A DNA stretch of 64,000 nucleotides from Campylobacterales bacterium (GTDB lineage Bacteria > Campylobacterota > Campylobacteria > Campylobacterales > JALSKU01): contig JAMOOV010000180.1 in the NCBI GenBank assembly GCA_027065125.1, forward strand, positions 14,437 through 78,436. Reading direction: 5' to 3'. Below are positions 3,060 to 25,080 of the stretch, piece after piece. The position numbers and the translations under genes were made by a program. Below the pieces are notes generated by a model. The model saw only the letters and a list, made by a program, of their open reading frames with translations, was not told the origin of the DNA and ran no database searches. Positions within the stretch are counted from its first letter, which is position 1; the number at the start of each line of letters is the position of its first letter.

Positions 3060-4464
3060 TTAAATCATCCATTGAACTCATTAAAGCTTGGAGTTTATTT
3101 TGTACTTCAAGATATTCAAGTTCTTTTTTACTATCGGCTACTATGCCGGCACCTGCTTGAAATATTATTTTTTCATCATCAAGATATGAAGTTCTTATAG
3201 CTATAGCACTATCTAAATTACCGTCAAAACCAAAATATCCGATAACTCCACTATAATAACTTCTTTTCAAACCTTCAAACTCAGCTATCAATTCCATAGC
3301 TCTTATCTTTGGAGTTCCGGTCATCGTACCTGCAGTAAAAGTGGCGGCAAATAAATCAAACATGTCATATTTTTCATCTATAACTCCCTCGACATCGCTA
3401 ACCATATGCATAACATGAGAGTACTTTTCTACTCTCATCATATCTTTTACTTTAACGGTTCCGGGCTTGGCTACTTTTCCTACATCATTTCTGCCAAGGT
3501 CGATAAGCATCAAGTGTTCGGCTCTCTCTTTTTCGTCATTTAACATATCTTTTTCAAGTTCCAAATCTTTATCTATATTATTGCCTCTTTTTCGTGTTCC
3601 TGCTATTGGTCTTAAAAGTATATGCCCGTCTTTAAGTGCCACCATAACTTCAGGAGAACTTCCCACTATAGAAAAGGAGTTAAAATCAAGAAGATACATA
3701 TATGGTGATGGATTTTTACTTCTTAAAACTCTATAAAAGCTAAGTTTGTCTATTTTGGCATATTGAGTAAATCTATTGGATAAAACGATTTGAAAAATAT
3801 CTCCACTTCTGATCATCTCTTTTGAATTCTCTACCATATTAAAAAATTTTTCTTTAGAAAATTCAAATTTACCTTTTTGAGAATTTATTTTTGATTTTAA
3901 CAAATTAAATGGTTTATATGGTTTGAAAATTGCACTCATTATTTCATCAAAATATTTAGATCTATTTTCTACTTCGCTAATAACTGTCAGTTTGTTTGTT
4001 TTGTGAGAAAATGCTATAGTTATCTTTGGTCTGACAAGCTCTATATCAGGGATATGTAACTCATCTTTTAAGTTTTGCATATTTTTTGTTAGTTTTGGTT
4101 CAAAGATTTTAACGGCATCATATCCAATATATCCGATAAAACCGTCGATAAAGCCAACATTTGCCTCTTTTGAAAGTTTTCTATATCTATTTTTATCTAT
4201 TTTTTTATAGTAAGATTTTAGAAAGTCAAATGGATTGTTGCCTATATGTTCTTTTTTTCCGTTATCTGATATAAAATAACTCTCTCCATCTTTGTGCATT
4301 ATCTTCTCTCTTGCTCCTATAAATATAAAAGAGAAGTTACCGTCACTTGTATTTATGGCACTTTCGAAAAAGAGTATAATTTCATTTTCATATAACTCTT
4401 TTACTCTTTTATAAATAGCTATGGGAGTAAGTTGATCAAATAATATACTTTTAAATTCAACCAT
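3052..4464 (-). CDS. chorismate-utilising enzyme, anthranilate synthase component I / aminodeoxychorismate synthase (TrpE/PabB) family
   Basis: 470 aa. C-terminal chorismate-binding motifs are TGTPKIRAMELI, RSYYSGVIGYFGFDGNLDSAIAIRT and AGAGIVADS. TrpE versus PabB cannot be decided by eye. Confidence 0.8.
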   Translation of the reverse strand: MVEFKSILFDQLTPIAIYKRVKELYENEIILFFESAINTSDGNFSFIFIGAREKIMHKDGESYFISDNGKKEHIGNNPFDFLKSYYKKIDKNRYRKLSKEANVGFIDGFIGYIGYDAVKIFEPKLTKNMQNLKDELHIPDIELVRPKITIAFSHKTNKLTVISEVENRSKYFDEIMSAIFKPYKPFNLLKSKINSQKGKFEFSKEKFFNMVENSKEMIRSGDIFQIVLSNRFTQYAKIDKLSFYRVLRSKNPSPYMYLLDFNSFSIVGSSPEVMVALKDGHILLRPIAGTRKRGNNIDKDLELEKDMLNDEKERAEHLMLIDLGRNDVGKVAKPGTVKVKDMMRVEKYSHVMHMVSDVEGVIDEKYDMFDLFAATFTAGTMTGTPKIRAMELIAEFEGLKRSYYSGVIGYFGFDGNLDSAIAIRTSYLDDEKIIFQAGAGIVADSKKELEYLEVQNKLQALMSSMDDLSE

Positions 4465-4469
4465 AATAC

Positions 4470-5150
4470 TTACTTGACAACATATATAAATGCAGCTTTA
4501 TTGATATGTTTTTTGATTTTTCCCATATCCTTTAATGCACTTTTTCTATTGTCATATGGTCCAATTAGTATCTTTATGGCATTTTTACCTGCTATTTTTA
4601 TATTGTAAAGAGTATATTTGTATCCGGCTTTTGAAATCTTTTTCAGATACTTTTTACTTGGTTTTGCTTTAAAAGTTACTCCTACTTGTATATATGTTGC
4701 TTTGTTTTTTACTTTGGTATTTGACTGTAGTTTTGTTTTTTTAATTTTGGCAGGAGCTTTTTTGATGCTATTTTGTTTTTTTGTAACTTCATTTGCATCT
4801 GTTTGCTTTTTTTGATTTATAGCTTCTTGTTGCTTCTCTTTTTGTTTGAGTTTTTCAACCATAGCATTGAAATTATTAGTTTTTGTGCTATTTTCCTCTA
4901 TGATAGGTACTTGCTTAAAGAGTTCATCTTTATTTTGCTGTTTATCCGTTTTTGTAGTTGGCTCCGGAGGCAAAACAATATTGAATTTATTCTTTTTAGC
5001 TTCAGGTTTATTAAAAATCCTCATACCGGCTAAAATGAGTAAAAAAAGGATGATTAAAGCGATGCTTAATAGTAGTAATTTTTTCGTTTTTGAAGAATTG
5101 CTGCTACTCTTATCCAATACTATATCACTTAATTCATTTTTTTCTTCCAT
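4470..5150 (-). CDS. SPOR domain membrane protein
   Basis: N-terminal TM helix, Lys/Gln-rich linker, and a C-terminal ~75-aa SPOR-like fold (YIQVGVTFKAKPSKKYLKKISKAGY...IKILIGPYDNRKSALKDMGKIKK). Confidence 0.7.
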   Translation of the reverse strand: MEEKNELSDIVLDKSSSNSSKTKKLLLLSIALIILFLLILAGMRIFNKPEAKKNKFNIVLPPEPTTKTDKQQNKDELFKQVPIIEENSTKTNNFNAMVEKLKQKEKQQEAINQKKQTDANEVTKKQNSIKKAPAKIKKTKLQSNTKVKNKATYIQVGVTFKAKPSKKYLKKISKAGYKYTLYNIKIAGKNAIKILIGPYDNRKSALKDMGKIKKHINKAAFIYVVK

Positions 5151-5165
5151 CTTTATCTCCTTTAT

Positions 5166-5708
5166 TTACATATGTTTTGACCAAGATGATCCTCTTTCTT
5201 TTTTATATACCTCATAAGGCAGGATTAAAATATTAAAATCTCTTGGTATGTTTGGATCGGGAAACATTTTCCACTGTCTTGGCATCTTTTGTTGTAATTT
5301 AGCTGATAATAACTTTGCCAGTTGATAAGCTTCTTGCAAAGTTGTATGACCCTTATGAACATACAAATGAAGATGTCCTTTTGTTTTACTTCTATATGCC
5401 GTAAAATTTATATAACCCTCCTCTCTAAGCATTAATTGAGCCCTATGCCAAAATCTCTCAGGATCTCTGCCATTGTAGTCAAATACTATATTTTCAACTA
5501 TATCTCTATCACTTATCAAAGAGTGTGCCACAGTAATTTTGCCATCAGAGTGATCATTCATAACACTCCTTGTTAGCATTTTATCAACTCTTTCAAATTT
5601 ATCGAAAAAAGTTTTTCCTTTATATGTTACTTTATTGGCAATACCATCCTTTTTTACATAATAAAATTTTGTAATCATTTTTATAAGAGTTACATCAACA
5701 CTATACAA
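5166..5708 (-). CDS. conserved hypothetical protein (DUF1882-like), downstream partner of glyA in Campylobacterales
   Basis: 180 aa with no TM segment. The position immediately after glyA matches the C. jejuni / H. pylori arrangement as I recall it. Contains GHLHLYVH. Confidence 0.5.
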   Translation of the reverse strand: MYSVDVTLIKMITKFYYVKKDGIANKVTYKGKTFFDKFERVDKMLTRSVMNDHSDGKITVAHSLISDRDIVENIVFDYNGRDPERFWHRAQLMLREEGYINFTAYRSKTKGHLHLYVHKGHTTLQEAYQLAKLLSAKLQQKMPRQWKMFPDPNIPRDFNILILPYEVYKKERGSSWSKHM

Positions 5709-5720
5709 AATCTAACCTCC

Positions 5721-6968
5721 TTAATATGTTGGTTTATCATATATGATAAATTTACTTGAAAGCTCCTCTATCTCTTTTTTTATGTTTTTTTGAAGTTCCA
5801 CATCTTCTATATTATCCAGTATATCTGCTATTTTATTGGCGATAAATTCAAACTCTTTTTCTTTCATACCTCTGCTTGTAAGGGCTGCTGAGCCTATTCT
5901 TATGCCACTTGTTACAAACGGGCTTCTTGTTTCCCCCGGAACAGTATTTTTATTGACTGTTATACCGGCATTTCCAAGAGCAATATCAGCATCTTTACCA
6001 CTAAAATCTTTATCTAAAAAAGATACAAGTATCAAATGATTATCGGTGCCTCCACTTACAACATTATATCCTCTTTTTATTAAAATATCGGATAAAATTT
6101 TCATATTGGACTTAATTTGCTTTGCATACTCTTTCCAAGATGGTTTTAGATTTTGAGCAAAACCTACCGCTTTAGCCGCTATCACATGAACCAATGGACC
6201 CCCTTGAATACCGGGAAAAATAGCACTATTTATTTTTTTTGCCAAATCTTCATCATTTGTAAGTATAAGTCCTCCTCTGGGACCTCTCAATGTTTTGTGT
6301 GTAGTTGTGGTTACTACATGACAATGAGGAAAAGGATGAGGATGTTCTCCTGCTACAACAAGTCCAGCAATATGTGCAACATCGGCAAACAGATATGCTC
6401 CGACTTCATCGGCTATCTCTCTAAATTTTGCAAAATTTATCTCTCTAGGGTATGCACTTGCTCCGCAAACGATAAGCTTTGGTTTGACTATGTGGGCTAT
6501 CTTTCTAACCTCTTCATAGTCTATAAAACCATCTTTGTTAACTCCGTAAAAAAAGCTTGAATATGTTTTCCCGGAACTACTGACTTTTGAGCCGTGAGTT
6601 AAGTGTCCACCTTGACTTAGATCCATGCCTAATATCTTGTCATATGGTTTCAAAAGAGCTTGATATACTCCTTGGTTGGCTTGAGAGCCCGAATTGGGCT
6701 GGACATTGGCAAATTTGCAACCAAAAAGTTCACAAGCTCTATCTATGGCAAGTTGCTCTACTTGATCGGCATATTCGCATCCTCCATAGTATCTTTTGTT
6801 TGGATAGCCCTCTGCATATTTATTTGTAAAGACACTTCCCATAGCTTCCATAACGGCAGGATATGTGAAGTTTTCACTTGCTATCATCTCTAAGTGATTG
6901 CTTTGTCTTTTTAGCTCAAGTTCGCAAAGTTCGTATATCTTGGAGTCGGTATCTTTTAAAAAACTCAT
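5721..6968 (-). CDS. glyA: serine hydroxymethyltransferase
   Basis: 415 aa with the PLP-lysine motif [14 protein letters not shown]. Overlaps the lysS stop by 4 nt. Confidence 0.97.
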
Positions 6969-8470
6969 TTATCTTCCTTTTTTGTATTTTCTAATGGTTT
7001 CATAGCCGGAAATAGTATCACATCTCTTATAGAGTGTTGATTTGTCAATAGCATAGTTAACCTATCTATCCCTATGCCCTCTCCGGCAGTTGGAGGCATA
7101 GCATAGCAAAGTGCTTTAACATAATCTTCATCCATTTCATGGGCTTCATCGTCTCCCGCATTTTTTGCATCAATTTGAGATTTAAATCTCTCATATTGAT
7201 CAAGAGGATTGTTTAACTCGTTAAAACCGTTAGCTATCTCTTTTCCTGCACAAAATAGCTCAAATCTTTCAGCAATATTCAGATCTTCGTCACTTCTTCT
7301 TGAGAGAGGACTTATCTCTATAGGAAAATCCATTACAAATGTAGGATTGATTAATTTATCCTCTACAAAATTATCAAAAAGTTCAGCTTTAAGATGTCCT
7401 GTACTCATCTCTTTTTTAACGGATATTCCATTTTCTGTGAGAAAATCATATATCTTTGTTTTATCATTTATGATATCTCTTGGAATCTTTCCTATATTTA
7501 CCAAAGAATCGTCATAGCTTATCTTGGCAAAAGGTACACTAAAATCTATCTCTAAGTCTCCATAATTTAATTTTGTAGGGAGTTTCAATCTTTTTAATAT
7601 TGTTAAAAACAACTCTTCAGTTAAACTCATCAAGTCTTTATATGTGTGATATGCCCAATAAAACTCTATCATTGTAAATTCCGGATTATGAGTTAAGTCC
7701 ATACCTTCATTTCTAAAGTTTCTATTGATTTCAAAAACAGATTCAAAACCTCCAACAACAAGTCGTTTTAAGTAAAGTTCCGGAGCAATTCTCAAATATC
7801 TCTCAACCCCTAAAGCATTATGATGTGTAACAAACGGTTTTGCATTTGCTCCACCAGCGATAGGGTGCATCATAGGTGTTTCAACTTCAAGAAAATTTTT
7901 ATTTTCAAAAAATGATCTTATAGTGCTTATGATAGTACTTCTTATCTGAAAAACTTTTTTCACATCTTGATTCATTATCATATCAAGATATCTTTGTCTA
8001 TATCTTAACTCTTTATCACTTAGTCCATGAAATTTTTCTGGAAGAGGAGTGATGGCTTTGGTAACCAACTGCAACTCTTTAGCATGGATAGTTAACTCTC
8101 CTGTTTTGGTTACAAAAGGAAAACCGCAAACTTTGATAATATCTCCGACTTCAATATATTTTTTTATATCTTTAAACCATTCTGCCCCAAGAGCATCTCT
8201 ACTTATATATACTTGAAGGAGACCTTTGTCATCTTCTATCTTTAAAAAAGCTGCTTTCCCCATCAATCTTAAAAATTTTATTCTACCTGCAATACAATCT
8301 GACTTTTCTTCATCCCTTTTATTTTCAAGCTCTTTGACATAATCAAATTTTTGAATAAAATCCTGTGTTGATAACTCTTTTTTTATATTGTGAGGATATG
8401 GGTTTATACCTATCTTTTGTAAATCTTGTGCTTTTTGAACTCTTTGCAATTCATATTCATTTAAATCCAA
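6965..8470 (-). CDS. lysS: lysine--tRNA ligase (class II)
   Basis: 501 aa. Class II motifs are [20 protein letters not shown] and [11 protein letters not shown], with an N-terminal OB anticodon domain. Confidence 0.97.
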
Positions 8471-21283: not shown

Positions 21284-22819
21284 ATGAAAAAAGTACCTAT
21301 CGTCGTTTTGGATTTTGGTTCACAATATACTCAACTTATTGCAAGAAAGATGAGAGAAAATGGAGTCTATTGTGAAATTGTTCCCTATAATGAAAATATA
21401 AAAAGCATAAAAGAGAGAGAACCAAGCGGCTTGATACTTTCAGGAGGTCCCGCTTCGGTGTATGACAAAGATGCTTATCACCCGGATAGTGAAGTATTTG
21501 AACTCGGTATCCCGATACTTGGTATCTGTTATGGCATGCAACTTATCGTACAACATTTTGGTGGCAAAGTAGTGCCTGCAAATTCTCATGAATATGGAAA
21601 AGCGGTTTTGCAGTGCGAAGATGATCCAATATTTAAGGATACTCCAAAAGAGCAGATAGTCTGGATGAGTCATAGTGATAGAGTAAAGGAGTTACCGGAG
21701 GGTTTTAAAAAGATAGCAAGTAGCGAAAATTCACCCTATGCAGCCATAGAAAATAGTGAAAAAAAGATATATGCTTTTCAATTTCATCCAGAAGTTCATC
21801 ACTCTAAGTATGGCAGTAAGCTTTTGAAAAACTTTGCGAAATATATCTGTGGTTGCGAAAGTACTTGGAATATGGGAAGTTTTGCCAAAGAGCAGATAAC
21901 AAAGATAAGAGATAAAGTTAAAGACGGAAAAGTTTTGTGTGCAGTTAGCGGAGGTGTGGATAGTTCCGTTGTTGCAGCTTTGCTCAATGAAGCCATAGGT
22001 GAAAAACTTGTGGCTGTTTTTATTGATACTGGTCTGCTTAGAGCAAACGAAAGAGAATCAGTAGAAAATATGTTTAAAGTCAAGCTTAAAATACCTCTTA
22101 TTACCATAGATGCTACAGAGCTTTATCTTGATAGACTAAAGGAAGTAATCGATCCGGAAGAGAAGAGAAAGATCATAGGGCATACTTTTATAGAGCTTTT
22201 TGAAAAAGAGGCAAAAAAACATGAAAATATAAAGTATCTCGCTCAAGGAACTCTCTACCCTGATGTTATAGAGTCTGTTTCTGTTAAAGGTCCGAGTAAA
22301 ACCATCAAATCTCATCACAATGTCGGAGGATTGCCTGATTGGATGAAGTTTGAACTTATCGAGCCTTTAAGAGAGCTTTTTAAAGATGAGGTTAGAGAGT
22401 TAGGGCTTGAACTTGGTATTCCAAAAGATATGATACAAAGACATCCTTTTCCGGGACCGGGACTTGCTATAAGAGTTATGGGCGAGGTAAATAAAGAGAG
22501 TTTAGAGCTTCTTAGAAAAGCGGATGTTATCATGCTGGAAGAGCTAAAAGCAAGCGGATACTACACTAAAACTTGGCAAGCTTTCACTGTACTTTTAAAT
22601 GTCAGCAGTGTAGGAGTAATGGGAGATAATAGAACATATGACAATACCGTTTGTGTAAGGGTTGTAGAGAGTGTAGATGGCATGACTGCAACATTTGCAC
22701 ATCTACCTCACGACCTTCTTGAAAGAATAAGCTCAAGAATTATAAACGAAGTGGACGGTATAAACAGAGTAGTTTATGATATAAGCTCCAAACCACCCGC
22801 CACGATAGAGTGGGAGTAA
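21284..22819 (+). CDS. guaA: GMP synthase (glutamine-hydrolysing)
   Basis: 511 aa with GATase [10 protein letters not shown]-loop SGGVDSSV and the C-terminus PPATIEWE. Confidence 0.97.
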
Positions 22820-22828
22820 AGCCGTAAA

Positions 22829-22853
22829 AAAAGGCAAACTGCTTTGCCTTTTT
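22829..22853 (+). terminator. rho-independent terminator of guaA
   Basis: Stem AAGGCAAA (22831-22838), loop ctgc, stem TTTGCCTT (22843-22850), then TTT. Preceded by an A-run. Confidence 0.75.
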
Positions 22854-22884
22854 AGGCTTTACTGACTTTTTTCATGTGTAAGCC

Positions 22885-23290
22885 CTAAAATCTAGGATTT
22901 TAGTGGCGAACACGAAAAAAGTCTGGGTACATTGAAGTAAATCGTAGCGAGCGAAGCGAGGTAGATTTACGGTTCGTTCAACGAAAGTTAAACACGATAA
23001 AGATACCTGCTTCGCAAACCAAAACATTTAGTCGAAGCAATAATATCATCAAATACACCAACAACTTTAGTATTCACAAAGTCTAAAATCTAGGATTTTA
23101 GTGGCGAACACGAAAAAAGTCTGGGTACATTGAAGTAAATCGTAGCGAGCGAAGCGAGGTAGATTTACGGTTCGTCGGGCGGAGTTGAACAGTAGTTTAA
23201 CGAAGTTAAACACGATAAAGATACCTGCTTCGCAAACCAAAACATTTAGTCGAAGCAATAATATCATCAAGTAAAATACACAACTTCAAA
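22885..23290. repeat. tandem direct repeat of a ~200-bp GC-enriched, hairpin-dense unit (unit 1 22885-23082, unit 2 23083-~23290)
   Basis: The first 93 nt of both units are identical (ctaaaatctaggattttagtggcgaac...gatttacggttcgt). The last 63 nt of the core are identical (aaacacgataaagatacctgcttcgc...atatcatcaa). Unit 2 carries an extra ~22 nt (cgggcggagttgaacagtagtt). See the finding for the stems. Confidence 0.9.
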
Positions 23291-23357
23291 AATTTAAATC
23301 TTTATTAAAACTATTGTGCTATCATTTCGTTATATTTTCAAATATATAAGGATTTGT

Positions 23358-24191
23358 ATGCATTTTTGTTCTGATGAATTGGATAGATTGATTTGTGAAG
23401 ATATGCCATATTTTGATTTGACAACAACACTTTTAGATATAAATAGTGATGGTGTTATTGAATTTAGTAGTAGAAATGAGATGTTTTTAAGCGGAAATGA
23501 GCTTGTCAAATTATTGGCAAAAAGAGTGGGATTGGAGGTACTATTTGCCAAAGATGACGGGCAGAATATAGAGAAAGATGTATCATTTTTTAAAGCTGAA
23601 GGTAAAGGAAAGGATGTACTTATTCTTTGGAAAGTTGCTCAAAATATTTATGAATATACTTGTGGTGTTGCTACATATGCAAATCAAATGGTTAAGATTG
23701 CAAAGAAAATCAACCCTTCTATGGAGATACTGACAACAAGAAAAATTGTCCCTTTTACTAAAAAAATAGCTCTAAAAGCTATCATGGACGGCGGGGCATA
23801 TCCTCATAGGATAACTACTAGTGAAACAATACTTGTATTTGAAAATTATATCAATCTTTACGGAGGTTGGGATAAATTTATAAATGAGTTTAAAAGACTA
23901 AAATCAAAATCTGTAGAGAAAAAATGGATAGTAGAAGCCAAAGATAAAAAAAGTGCTCAAAGGTTTATTGATATCGGAGTAGATGTTTTGCAACTTGATA
24001 AAGTTGATGCTAAAACTACTAAAGATATAGTTAAAATTGCTCATAATAACGGAGTAAAGGTGATAAGTGCCGGAGGTATCAATGTAGGTAATATCGAAGA
24101 ATATGCAAAAAGTATGACAGATGCAGTTGTTACTACTTCTCCGTATTATGCAGATAGTGCAGATATAAAAGTTACGATTAAAAAGGCTTAA
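23358..24191 (+). CDS. ModD-like protein (quinolinate phosphoribosyltransferase family)
   Basis: The ATG at 23358 is preceded by AAGGA; the track ORF starts earlier at TTG 23316. Motifs are SDELDRLICEDMPYFDLTT, TTRKIVPFTKK and GGAYPHRITTSETILVFENY. It lacks the NadC-type LIKDNH, hence ModD-like rather than NadC. Confidence 0.6.
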   Translation: MHFCSDELDRLICEDMPYFDLTTTLLDINSDGVIEFSSRNEMFLSGNELVKLLAKRVGLEVLFAKDDGQNIEKDVSFFKAEGKGKDVLILWKVAQNIYEYTCGVATYANQMVKIAKKINPSMEILTTRKIVPFTKKIALKAIMDGGAYPHRITTSETILVFENYINLYGGWDKFINEFKRLKSKSVEKKWIVEAKDKKSAQRFIDIGVDVLQLDKVDAKTTKDIVKIAHNNGVKVISAGGINVGNIEEYAKSMTDAVVTTSPYYADSADIKVTIKKA

Positions 24192-24856: not shown

Positions 24857-25080
24857 AAGTAATTATCCTGAATGATACGACACCTGCTCGTTATTGAGGG
24901 TCCAACAGATTTCATTGTTTGGAAAAAGTATGCTTTTGGTGTGTCTGTGACTTCGTTTGAGTTTTTGAAAAAAAGCGAGAAGCTGCAGCCTAAAGAGAGC
25001 ATCTTTTCCAAGTTTTTTTTGGCTTTTTAGGGCCACTTTTGAGCAGAACGGTCATTTGGGTAATTACTCTTCAAAATTTT
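24857..25080 (+). ncRNA. ssrS: candidate 6S RNA (long imperfect hairpin with a large central bubble)
   Basis: A TAAAAT -10 box lies at 24845-24850. Closing stem 24859-24875 pairs with 25052-25067 (16 bp, 1 bulge). Further stems: CUGCUC 24884-24889 with GAGCAG 25041-25046; GGUCC 24899-24903 with GGGCC 25030-25034. The central bubble is 24904-24917 opposite 25012-25029. Beyond it, UUGGAAAA 24919-24926 pairs with UUUUCCAA 25004-25011, and more apical pairing follows. About 10 G-U pairs exist only on the + strand. End coordinates are approximate. Confidence 0.55.

Follow-up and report, generated by a model that had tools for sequence, protein, structure and literature searches.

Described bacterial repeats offer several points of comparison for structured intergenic sequences. 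REP palindromes and their BIME assemblies are structured repeats outside genes that settle at gene 3' ends, with stems kept by complementary changes (some as G·T pairs), and they occur as singletons, tandem units or head-to-head clusters, are non-autonomous, and can act as terminators or as stabilisers of mRNA 3' ends. REPs consist of one palindrome of 20–40 nt that bears a GTAG tag on its 5' side; they number in the hundreds, and a RAYT gene is often close by. GTAG- and CGTC-tagged REP/BIME palindromes have been reported for Sulfurovum (PMC3733652). The BOX repeats of Streptococcus pneumoniae (boxA-(boxB)n-boxC), ERIC/IRU and Correia elements are modular, transcribed, hairpin-forming intergenic repeats, and the tandem number of the internal BOX module varies between loci and strains.

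The element described here, found between guaA and modD in a member of the Campylobacterota, most resembles repeats of the REP/BIME, BOX or MITE type, although its architecture is different and larger. It shares the extragenic location, the maintained stems, the arrangements and the non-autonomous nature of REP/BIME repeats, and may also end or stabilise transcripts, but instead of a single palindrome it is a chain of at least four hairpins (155–180 nt) with conserved purine internal loops. The GTAG sequence lies 3' of the hairpin in a related module (type A) and not 5', and no 5' GTAG or CGTC tag of the REP type was found in the window copy, which has TTTAG after the hairpin. Two units of this element in the window recall the variable module number of BOX; however, there is no sequence similarity to BOX, ERIC or Correia repeats, which occur in different taxa, and the terminal inverted repeats and short target duplications of Correia and ERIC were not found. 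The loci Ibs/Sib of E. coli and AapA/IsoA of H. pylori are alike in another way, as intergenic units repeated in tandem in which a short hydrophobic ORF faces a structured strand, but the conserved features of the present family are on the structure-bearing strand and the ORF is not conserved.

Extent and architecture of the element

The spacer lies within the 64-kb stretch of DNA analysed here (the window), between guaA (21284–22819) and a ModD/QRPTase-like gene whose ATG is at 23358. Homologues of ModD place the host in the Nautiliaceae, a group of hydrothermal-vent Campylobacterota. The first-pass annotation had described two head-to-tail units in this spacer, and the pair is real: positions 22885–22977 and 23083–23175 are 100% identical over 93 nt, and 22985–23055 and 23203–23273 are 99% identical over 71 nt, with start-to-start spacings of 198 nt and 218 nt, respectively. 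Tandem Repeats Finder did not report the pair, and the repeat therefore rests on direct comparison and on a shuffle test of the 34-nt purine-loop hairpin, which has two exact occurrences in the window against 0 expected (100 shuffles). No third copy was found by BLASTN within the 64-kb window. All of the stems listed in that annotation are present in the sequence, and the units are indeed enriched in G+C, if only modestly (0.37 versus 0.32 for the window).

The start of the element had been placed too far downstream. Conservation between lineages begins at the guaA stop codon (22816) and not at 22885, and the hairpin that had been set apart as the guaA terminator is part of the same conserved element, as is 22864–22884, the 5' arm of a long stem (Table 1). 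The TAAAAT at the head of each unit, taken for a -10-like box, is not conserved, being TAAAAC in one single-copy relative (L003) and CGAAAG in a copy at another locus (L056). The conserved core measures about 155–180 nt and takes in P1/P2, P3 with hairpin 1, P5 and a GNRA-capped hairpin (P6), and beyond it lies a lineage-specific tail. Module 1, at the 5' end, is flanked by an A-tract and a T-tract on both strands, and the sequence of its outer helix P1 is free to vary between copies while the pairing is retained. Considering these features together with the copies described below, we hold it reasonably probable that the spacer is one copy of a dispersed, non-coding, hairpin-chain element of REP/BIME-, BOX- or MITE-like character, folded on the + strand.

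Table 1. Parts of the element, of its tandem units and of the opposite-strand ORFs, in window coordinates.
Feature	Position	Strand	Description
Core	22816-22970	+	~155 nt; P1/P2, P3 with hairpin 1, P5
Module 1	22816..22862	+	P1 GTAAAGCC/GGCTTTAC, including the guaA TAA stop; first annotated as the guaA terminator
Module 1 interior		+	Junction GTAA, hairpin P2 (AAAAAGGCAAA-CTGC-TTTGCCTTTTT), junction A, all inside P1
P3 long stem	22864..22923	+	GACTTTTTTC / GAAAAAAGTC, GTGT/ACAC, AA/GA purine internal loop, GCC/GGC
P3 5' arm	22864-22884	+	Outside unit 1 as first annotated; 3' arm inside it
Hairpin 1	22885-22903	+	CTAAAATC-TAG-GATTTTAG, enclosed by P3
P5	22937..22970	+	GTAAATC/GATTTAC, purine internal loop GTAGCGA / GAGGTA, mini-hairpin GCGAAGC
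Unit 1 as first annotated	22885..23082	+	Hairpin 1, P3 3' arm, P5, fused P6/P7, TGCTTCG/CGAAGCA hairpin, filler
Unit 1 fused P6/P7 hairpin	22976-22993	+	GTTCAAC-GAAA-GTTAAAC, left by the 21-nt deletion
Unit 1 TGCTTCG/CGAAGCA hairpin	23008-23039	+	
Unit 1 junction filler	23069-23082	+	AGTATTCACAAAGT
Unit 2 as first annotated	23083..23290	+	Second hairpin 1 at 23083-23101
Unit 2 orphan copy of P3 3' arm	23108-23121	+	
Unit 2 P5 copy	23135-23168	+	
Unit 2 replacement	23176-23182	+	CGGGCGG in place of P6 5' arm
Unit 2 P7	23195-23211	+	GTTTAAC-GAA-GTTAAAC
Unit 2 TGCTTCG/CGAAGCA hairpin	23226-23257	+	
Hydrophobic ORF (23 aa)	22978..23049	-	In the ORF list; judged not to be a gene
Unit 2 counterpart ORF	23067-23270	-	67 aa

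The element was previously uncatalogued, and neither Rfam 15 nor the literature searched contains a match to it, nor do collections of plasmids, phages and viruses. Searches of Rfam 15 with the region, the whole window and a single-copy locus (L007) gave no relevant match to it at E<=10, which leaves the idea of a known RNA family (6S RNA, the Moco riboswitch, self-cleaving ribozymes and group I/II introns included) without a counterpart there, and 26 related loci (gathering thresholds and E<=1) returned tRNAs and sub-threshold chance matches only. BLASTN of the spacer against plasmid and phage collections gave no match. Among viral contigs, a 20-mer of P2 had 0 matches and a loop 18-mer had 3, scored as chance by a covariance model of the core (R1, see below). 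A literature search by hairpin sequence found no paper, and keyword searches gave general REP and MITE papers.

Origin of the tandem pair

Syntenic loci were retrieved through ModD and GuaA. An ENA assembly (L001) is identical to the window, tandem included, and an NCBI MAG (L007) with a guaA 99.9% identical in nucleotide sequence has a spacer of 341 nt with one unit. Two further relatives (L002 and L003, ModD ~90% identical) also carry one unit each. Judged against this single-copy form, the main difference between the units is not simply an insertion of ~22 nt in unit 2, as had been thought. Unit 1 has lost 21 nt (GAACAGTAGTTTAACGAAGTT), a deletion that merged the hairpins GTTCAAC-GAAA-GTTGAAC and GTTTAAC-GAA-GTTAAAC into one, and in unit 2 the 5' arm of the P6 hairpin (TCAACGAA) has been swapped for CGGGCGG. 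P6 is damaged in both window copies.

The window strain carries a recent, strain-specific partial tandem duplication that starts with hairpin 1 and reaches the tail's end, with its breakpoint at 22884/22885, inside the P3 stem. R1 scored 23028–23168 as a partial second core (62.9 bits). The single-copy form is the ancestral one, both window copies having been altered, by deletion in one case and by replacement in the other. The element is probably prone to duplicate locally, through slippage or unequal exchange between its hairpins, and we infer that the two units have no function as a pair. The tandem might instead be an artefact of metagenome assembly, in which two strain variants of a single-copy locus were joined. 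The window and L001 may share a source sample; L007, as the closest independent assembly, is single-copy; and each unit has a different private change, as would be expected of two alleles. We nevertheless consider an artefact quite improbable: the junction at 23050–23082 holds sequence found in none of the single-copy alleles, which argues against a trivial collapse or expansion during assembly, and comparable local duplications are present at four related loci (L056, L090, L023 and L047).

Dispersed copies and wider relatives

A 20-mer from the P5 loop, scanned for exact matches in 185,579 species genomes, gave one true match, a Campylobacterales MAG (L011) in which the core lies between nusG and rplK. 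At 6430–6570 of this locus a run of N has a duplicated nusG 3' end and element start at its sides, and the repeat itself probably gave rise to this as an artefact of scaffolding. The covariance model R1, built from six core sequences, recovered full-length cores after a thiS/moaD-like ORF (L056) and after fabI (L060), and at least six more, in both orientations and partly head-to-head, on a contig of 27.6 kb (L023), where they flank cas1, cas2 and a CRISPR array; in the 64-kb window it recovered a single copy of the element. Copies at unrelated gene 3' ends and in clusters, in other Campylobacterota, bear out the dispersed repeat family that the first-pass annotation had offered as an alternative. 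On L023 one copy interrupts a CRISPR repeat, of which 16 nt are duplicated at the flanks of the copy.

The cas1 and cas2 genes of L023 and its array of 37-nt repeats occupy positions 3515–7320, the distal repeats being broken by copies of the element. The same contig has two near-identical composite clusters of ~440 nt, 5.8 kb apart, on either side of a stretch with nucleotidyltransferase/HEPN-like genes, the cas genes and the array. At ~560–890 of L060 (minus-strand reading) there is an insert of ~330 nt with 33-bp terminal inverted repeats (AAGTACCTATTCATAAGTAGTATCGACCAATAG), which is a MITE nested in the element that splits hairpin 1 of the fabI copy.

Many relatives overlap the stop codon of a same-strand ORF (e.g. 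guaA, nusG, thiS, fabG), and the fabI ORF reads through the 5' arm of P1 and stops in the junction GTTAA. Genomes with 34–54% G+C (L047, L068, L060 and L083) have a fabI ORF that ends inside the element, which provides its last 3–4 codons and its stop through the P1 arm and the junction GTTAA. With regard to MITE criteria, the element has no terminal inverted repeats, and only chance-level direct repeats, not a target duplication, were found around the copies at guaA, nusG, thiS and fabI. In this respect the ORF-end copies differ from the relatives in the CRISPR repeat and at tRNAs, which have flanking duplications of 16–21 nt. Clustering of the neighbouring ORFs revealed no candidate mobilising gene, that is, no family recurring next to the element, and only housekeeping synteny (fabI, ribosomal proteins, CCA-adding enzyme). 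The element probably behaves like REP/BIME elements, BOX elements or MITEs, as a structured repeat whose spread is slow and whose sites are the 3' ends of transcribed genes.

Module 1 reaches further than the full core. Its P2 20-mer, AAGGCAAACTGCTTTGCCTT, was found by an exact scan of JGI metagenomes at 81 loci that range from 28 to 58% G+C, several with two or three tandem copies and many adjoining tRNAs or overlapping ORF ends. Over 32 distinct copies, P1 comprises 124 Watson-Crick, 10 G·T, 8 A·C and 18 other combinations, and where the P2 stem varies in other copies its apex AACTGCTT is retained. In contigs that look like candidate-phyla-radiation bacteria the module lies 10–50 nt after a tRNA, and a direct copy of the last 19 nt of the tRNA follows ~105–180 nt later; in other contigs it precedes tRNA-Ser, Thr or Glu and is itself preceded by a copy of the first 18–21 nt of the tRNA. 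Complementary segments in these tRNA-linked elements form closing helices. At three loci among L032, L043 and L053 (and L014), all contigs of candidate-phyla-radiation appearance, the tRNA-linked module sits beside a gene for the CCA-adding enzyme.

A broader proposal, which we put forward tentatively and consider rather doubtful, is that the window element belongs to a large, uncatalogued, non-autonomous structured superfamily spread across several phyla. Its members would share the P1-junction-P2 module with the conserved AACTGCTT apex and a tandem-G·A module, and their insertion sites would be the termini of structured genes that are transcribed (the 3' or 5' end of a tRNA, CRISPR repeats, ORF stop codons). 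Insertion would leave a direct target copy of 16–21 nt together with sequence complementary to the target, so that target-derived sequence would become the closing helix of the fold. The mechanism implied would be an undescribed one, possibly template-directed, Cas1-like or retro-type.

If the family reading is true, vent Campylobacterota, and apparently other phyla too, harbour uncatalogued structured repeats that sit on stop codons, tRNA ends and CRISPR repeats and that supply terminators and even last codons (fabI), which has a bearing on the evolution of gene 3' ends. Genome annotation would be affected because a copy may be misread as a terminator, a small RNA or a small ORF, and metagenome assembly because the elements are places where contigs end. 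At tRNAs and in the CRISPR repeat the target duplications are unusually long, which points to an insertion mechanism worth identifying.

Fold, strand and competing explanations

On a MAFFT alignment of six cores, RNAalifold predicted 55 pairs, with 95.7% of cells paired. Compensatory changes are present in 15 of the 55 pairs (6 sequences), against 4.7±1.6 after shuffling; none of 500 shuffles reached 15, and controls with slid partners gave 0–2 compensatory pairs. P3 alone has such changes in 10 of its 25 pairs (6 sequences). With 12 model-aligned copies the figure rises to 30 of 55, in an alignment that leans toward the model. Both the P5 stem (GAAAATC/GATTTTC, GACAAATC/GATTTGTC) and its central mini-hairpin (GCGAAGC, GTAAAAC, GTGAAAC, ATGAAAT) covary, and the stem of P6 has changed wholly (GTTCAAC/GTTGAAC, TCTCAAC/GTTGAGA, TTTCTT/AAGAAA) around a retained GNRA-type loop (GAAA, GCAA). 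Every core helix is maintained by compensatory change; the folded molecule may be RNA or single-stranded DNA. Covariation of the stems, proposed as a check by the first-pass annotation, came out strongly in their favour, and the label "structured" is therefore right. C-G-closed GNA and GNNA loops are stable both as RNA and as single-stranded DNA.

The element is also under selection. Compared with L002, the core is 99.4% identical and the tail (the distal part) 89%, and the third codon positions of guaA and modD are 74–79% identical. Across lineages there is hardly any variation in the internal loops or in the 30-nt P5 loop, and the purine-rich internal loops, along with the GNA/GNRA loops, are probably a recognition surface for a putative trans-acting factor.

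For the conserved core, structural signals favour the + strand. Folding energy is lower on this strand in five of five lineages, and, in an alignment fitted to the + strand model, non-canonical positions read on it are purine-purine in 26 cases and pyrimidine-pyrimidine in 1, with 13 G·T and 4 A·C wobbles. The wobbles of P1 have no strand bias (10 G·T versus 8 A·C), and 19 of 22 tRNA-adjacent relatives are on the tRNA strand. P2 (GGCAAA-CTGC-TTTGCC), right after the guaA stop, is G+C-cored, with an A-tract upstream and a T-tract downstream; the run after it is TTTTT on the + strand and seven T long on the - strand. With such tracts on either side, it would double as a bidirectional intrinsic terminator, most likely that of guaA, and may in addition protect the 3' end of the guaA transcript. 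A simple rule-based scan did not call P2 as a terminator, probably because the A/T tracts were counted into the stem. Unlike an ordinary terminator, this 20-nt hairpin occurs verbatim in the 81 unrelated loci, usually in P1 and without a T-run, and it is therefore a co-opted module of the element and not a private terminator.

Two other explanations look to the minus strand. Transcription of a small RNA gene might begin close to the promoter region of modD, cross the element and end at P2; unit 1 alone folds better on this strand (z -5.05), the whole single-copy spacer folds very well on it (z -7.35), the U-run after P2 is longer (7 versus 5), a simple scan matched a TTGAAA-17-CACAAT promoter at 23341–23313, and a change in the tail of L002 and L003, TGCTTCG to TACTTCG, pairs only there. 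Such a gene was favoured at first, on the z-scores and on apparent G·U pairs, and was downgraded to very improbable because the core, compared on both strands, is more stable on the + strand in all five lineages and there shows purine-purine mismatches and an excess of G·T over A·C (13 to 4). The minus-strand signal stems from the lineage-specific tail, which other family members lack, and the promoter match overlaps the conserved modD promoter, so that its conservation is uninformative. The same tail contains the hydrophobic ORF on which a type I toxin-antitoxin module of the Ibs/Sib or AapA/IsoA kind had been proposed, with a minus-strand peptide set against a + strand structured RNA. The ORF does exist, with 23 aa and in unit 2 with 67 aa, in a tandem arrangement; yet its region is absent from the copies at nusG, thiS and fabI and on the CRISPR contig (L011, L056, L060, L023), no AGGAG-like Shine-Dalgarno motif is found in GTTGTTGGTGTATTTG, upstream of the minus-strand ATG, and indels between copies and strains shift its length from 23 to 30 to 67 aa. 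Within the guaA lineage it differs by amino-acid-changing substitutions, and sister strains have one unit only. With structural signals favouring the + strand as well, we find a toxin-antitoxin function hardly credible, and a false lead is removed for the window.

On the + strand itself, the copies could be paralogous structured RNA genes, or RNA domains of 3' UTRs, with a cellular function (e.g. protein binding or sponging, RNA processing or stability) rather than selfish repeats, the duplication then providing two expressed variants. Helices kept by compensatory change, the near-invariant internal and P5 loops, the GNRA loops of P6 (GAAA, GCAA), the co-orientation of copies with an upstream ORF or tRNA, and a core far more conserved than synonymous sites are all consistent with this idea. 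We judge it unlikely all the same: copies on L023 lie in both orientations, head-to-head, copies interrupt a CRISPR repeat and are in turn interrupted by a MITE, and P6 is damaged in both window copies. A + strand promoter match (CTGACT-18-TAAAAT) is lost in L003 and L056, and with the minus-strand match overlapping the conserved modD promoter region, neither counts as a conserved promoter. A cis-regulatory leader of modD, such as a riboswitch of the molybdenum-cofactor type, would fit the position upstream of modD on the same strand and the GNRA hairpins, but is highly improbable. It was rejected on the absence of any Moco or other riboswitch match in Rfam even at E<=10 and on a relative with a 69%-identical modD that has the proximal promoter and palindrome and no element; the same core, moreover, is found before rplK and after fabI and thiS. 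The dispersed, + strand folded repeat remains our preferred reading.

Identity with 6S RNA was also rejected, because the Rfam purD RNA motif, which we take to be the epsilonproteobacterial 6S RNA, sits at 24928–25061 (+ strand, 100.3 bits), upstream of purD. Closer to modD, at 23328–23351, an imperfect palindrome (CGTTATAT-N8-ATATAAGG) overlaps the ribosome-binding site of the gene. As a putative operator it resembles the molybdate-responsive ModE type, and it is conserved even in L004, where modD has a different upstream neighbour.
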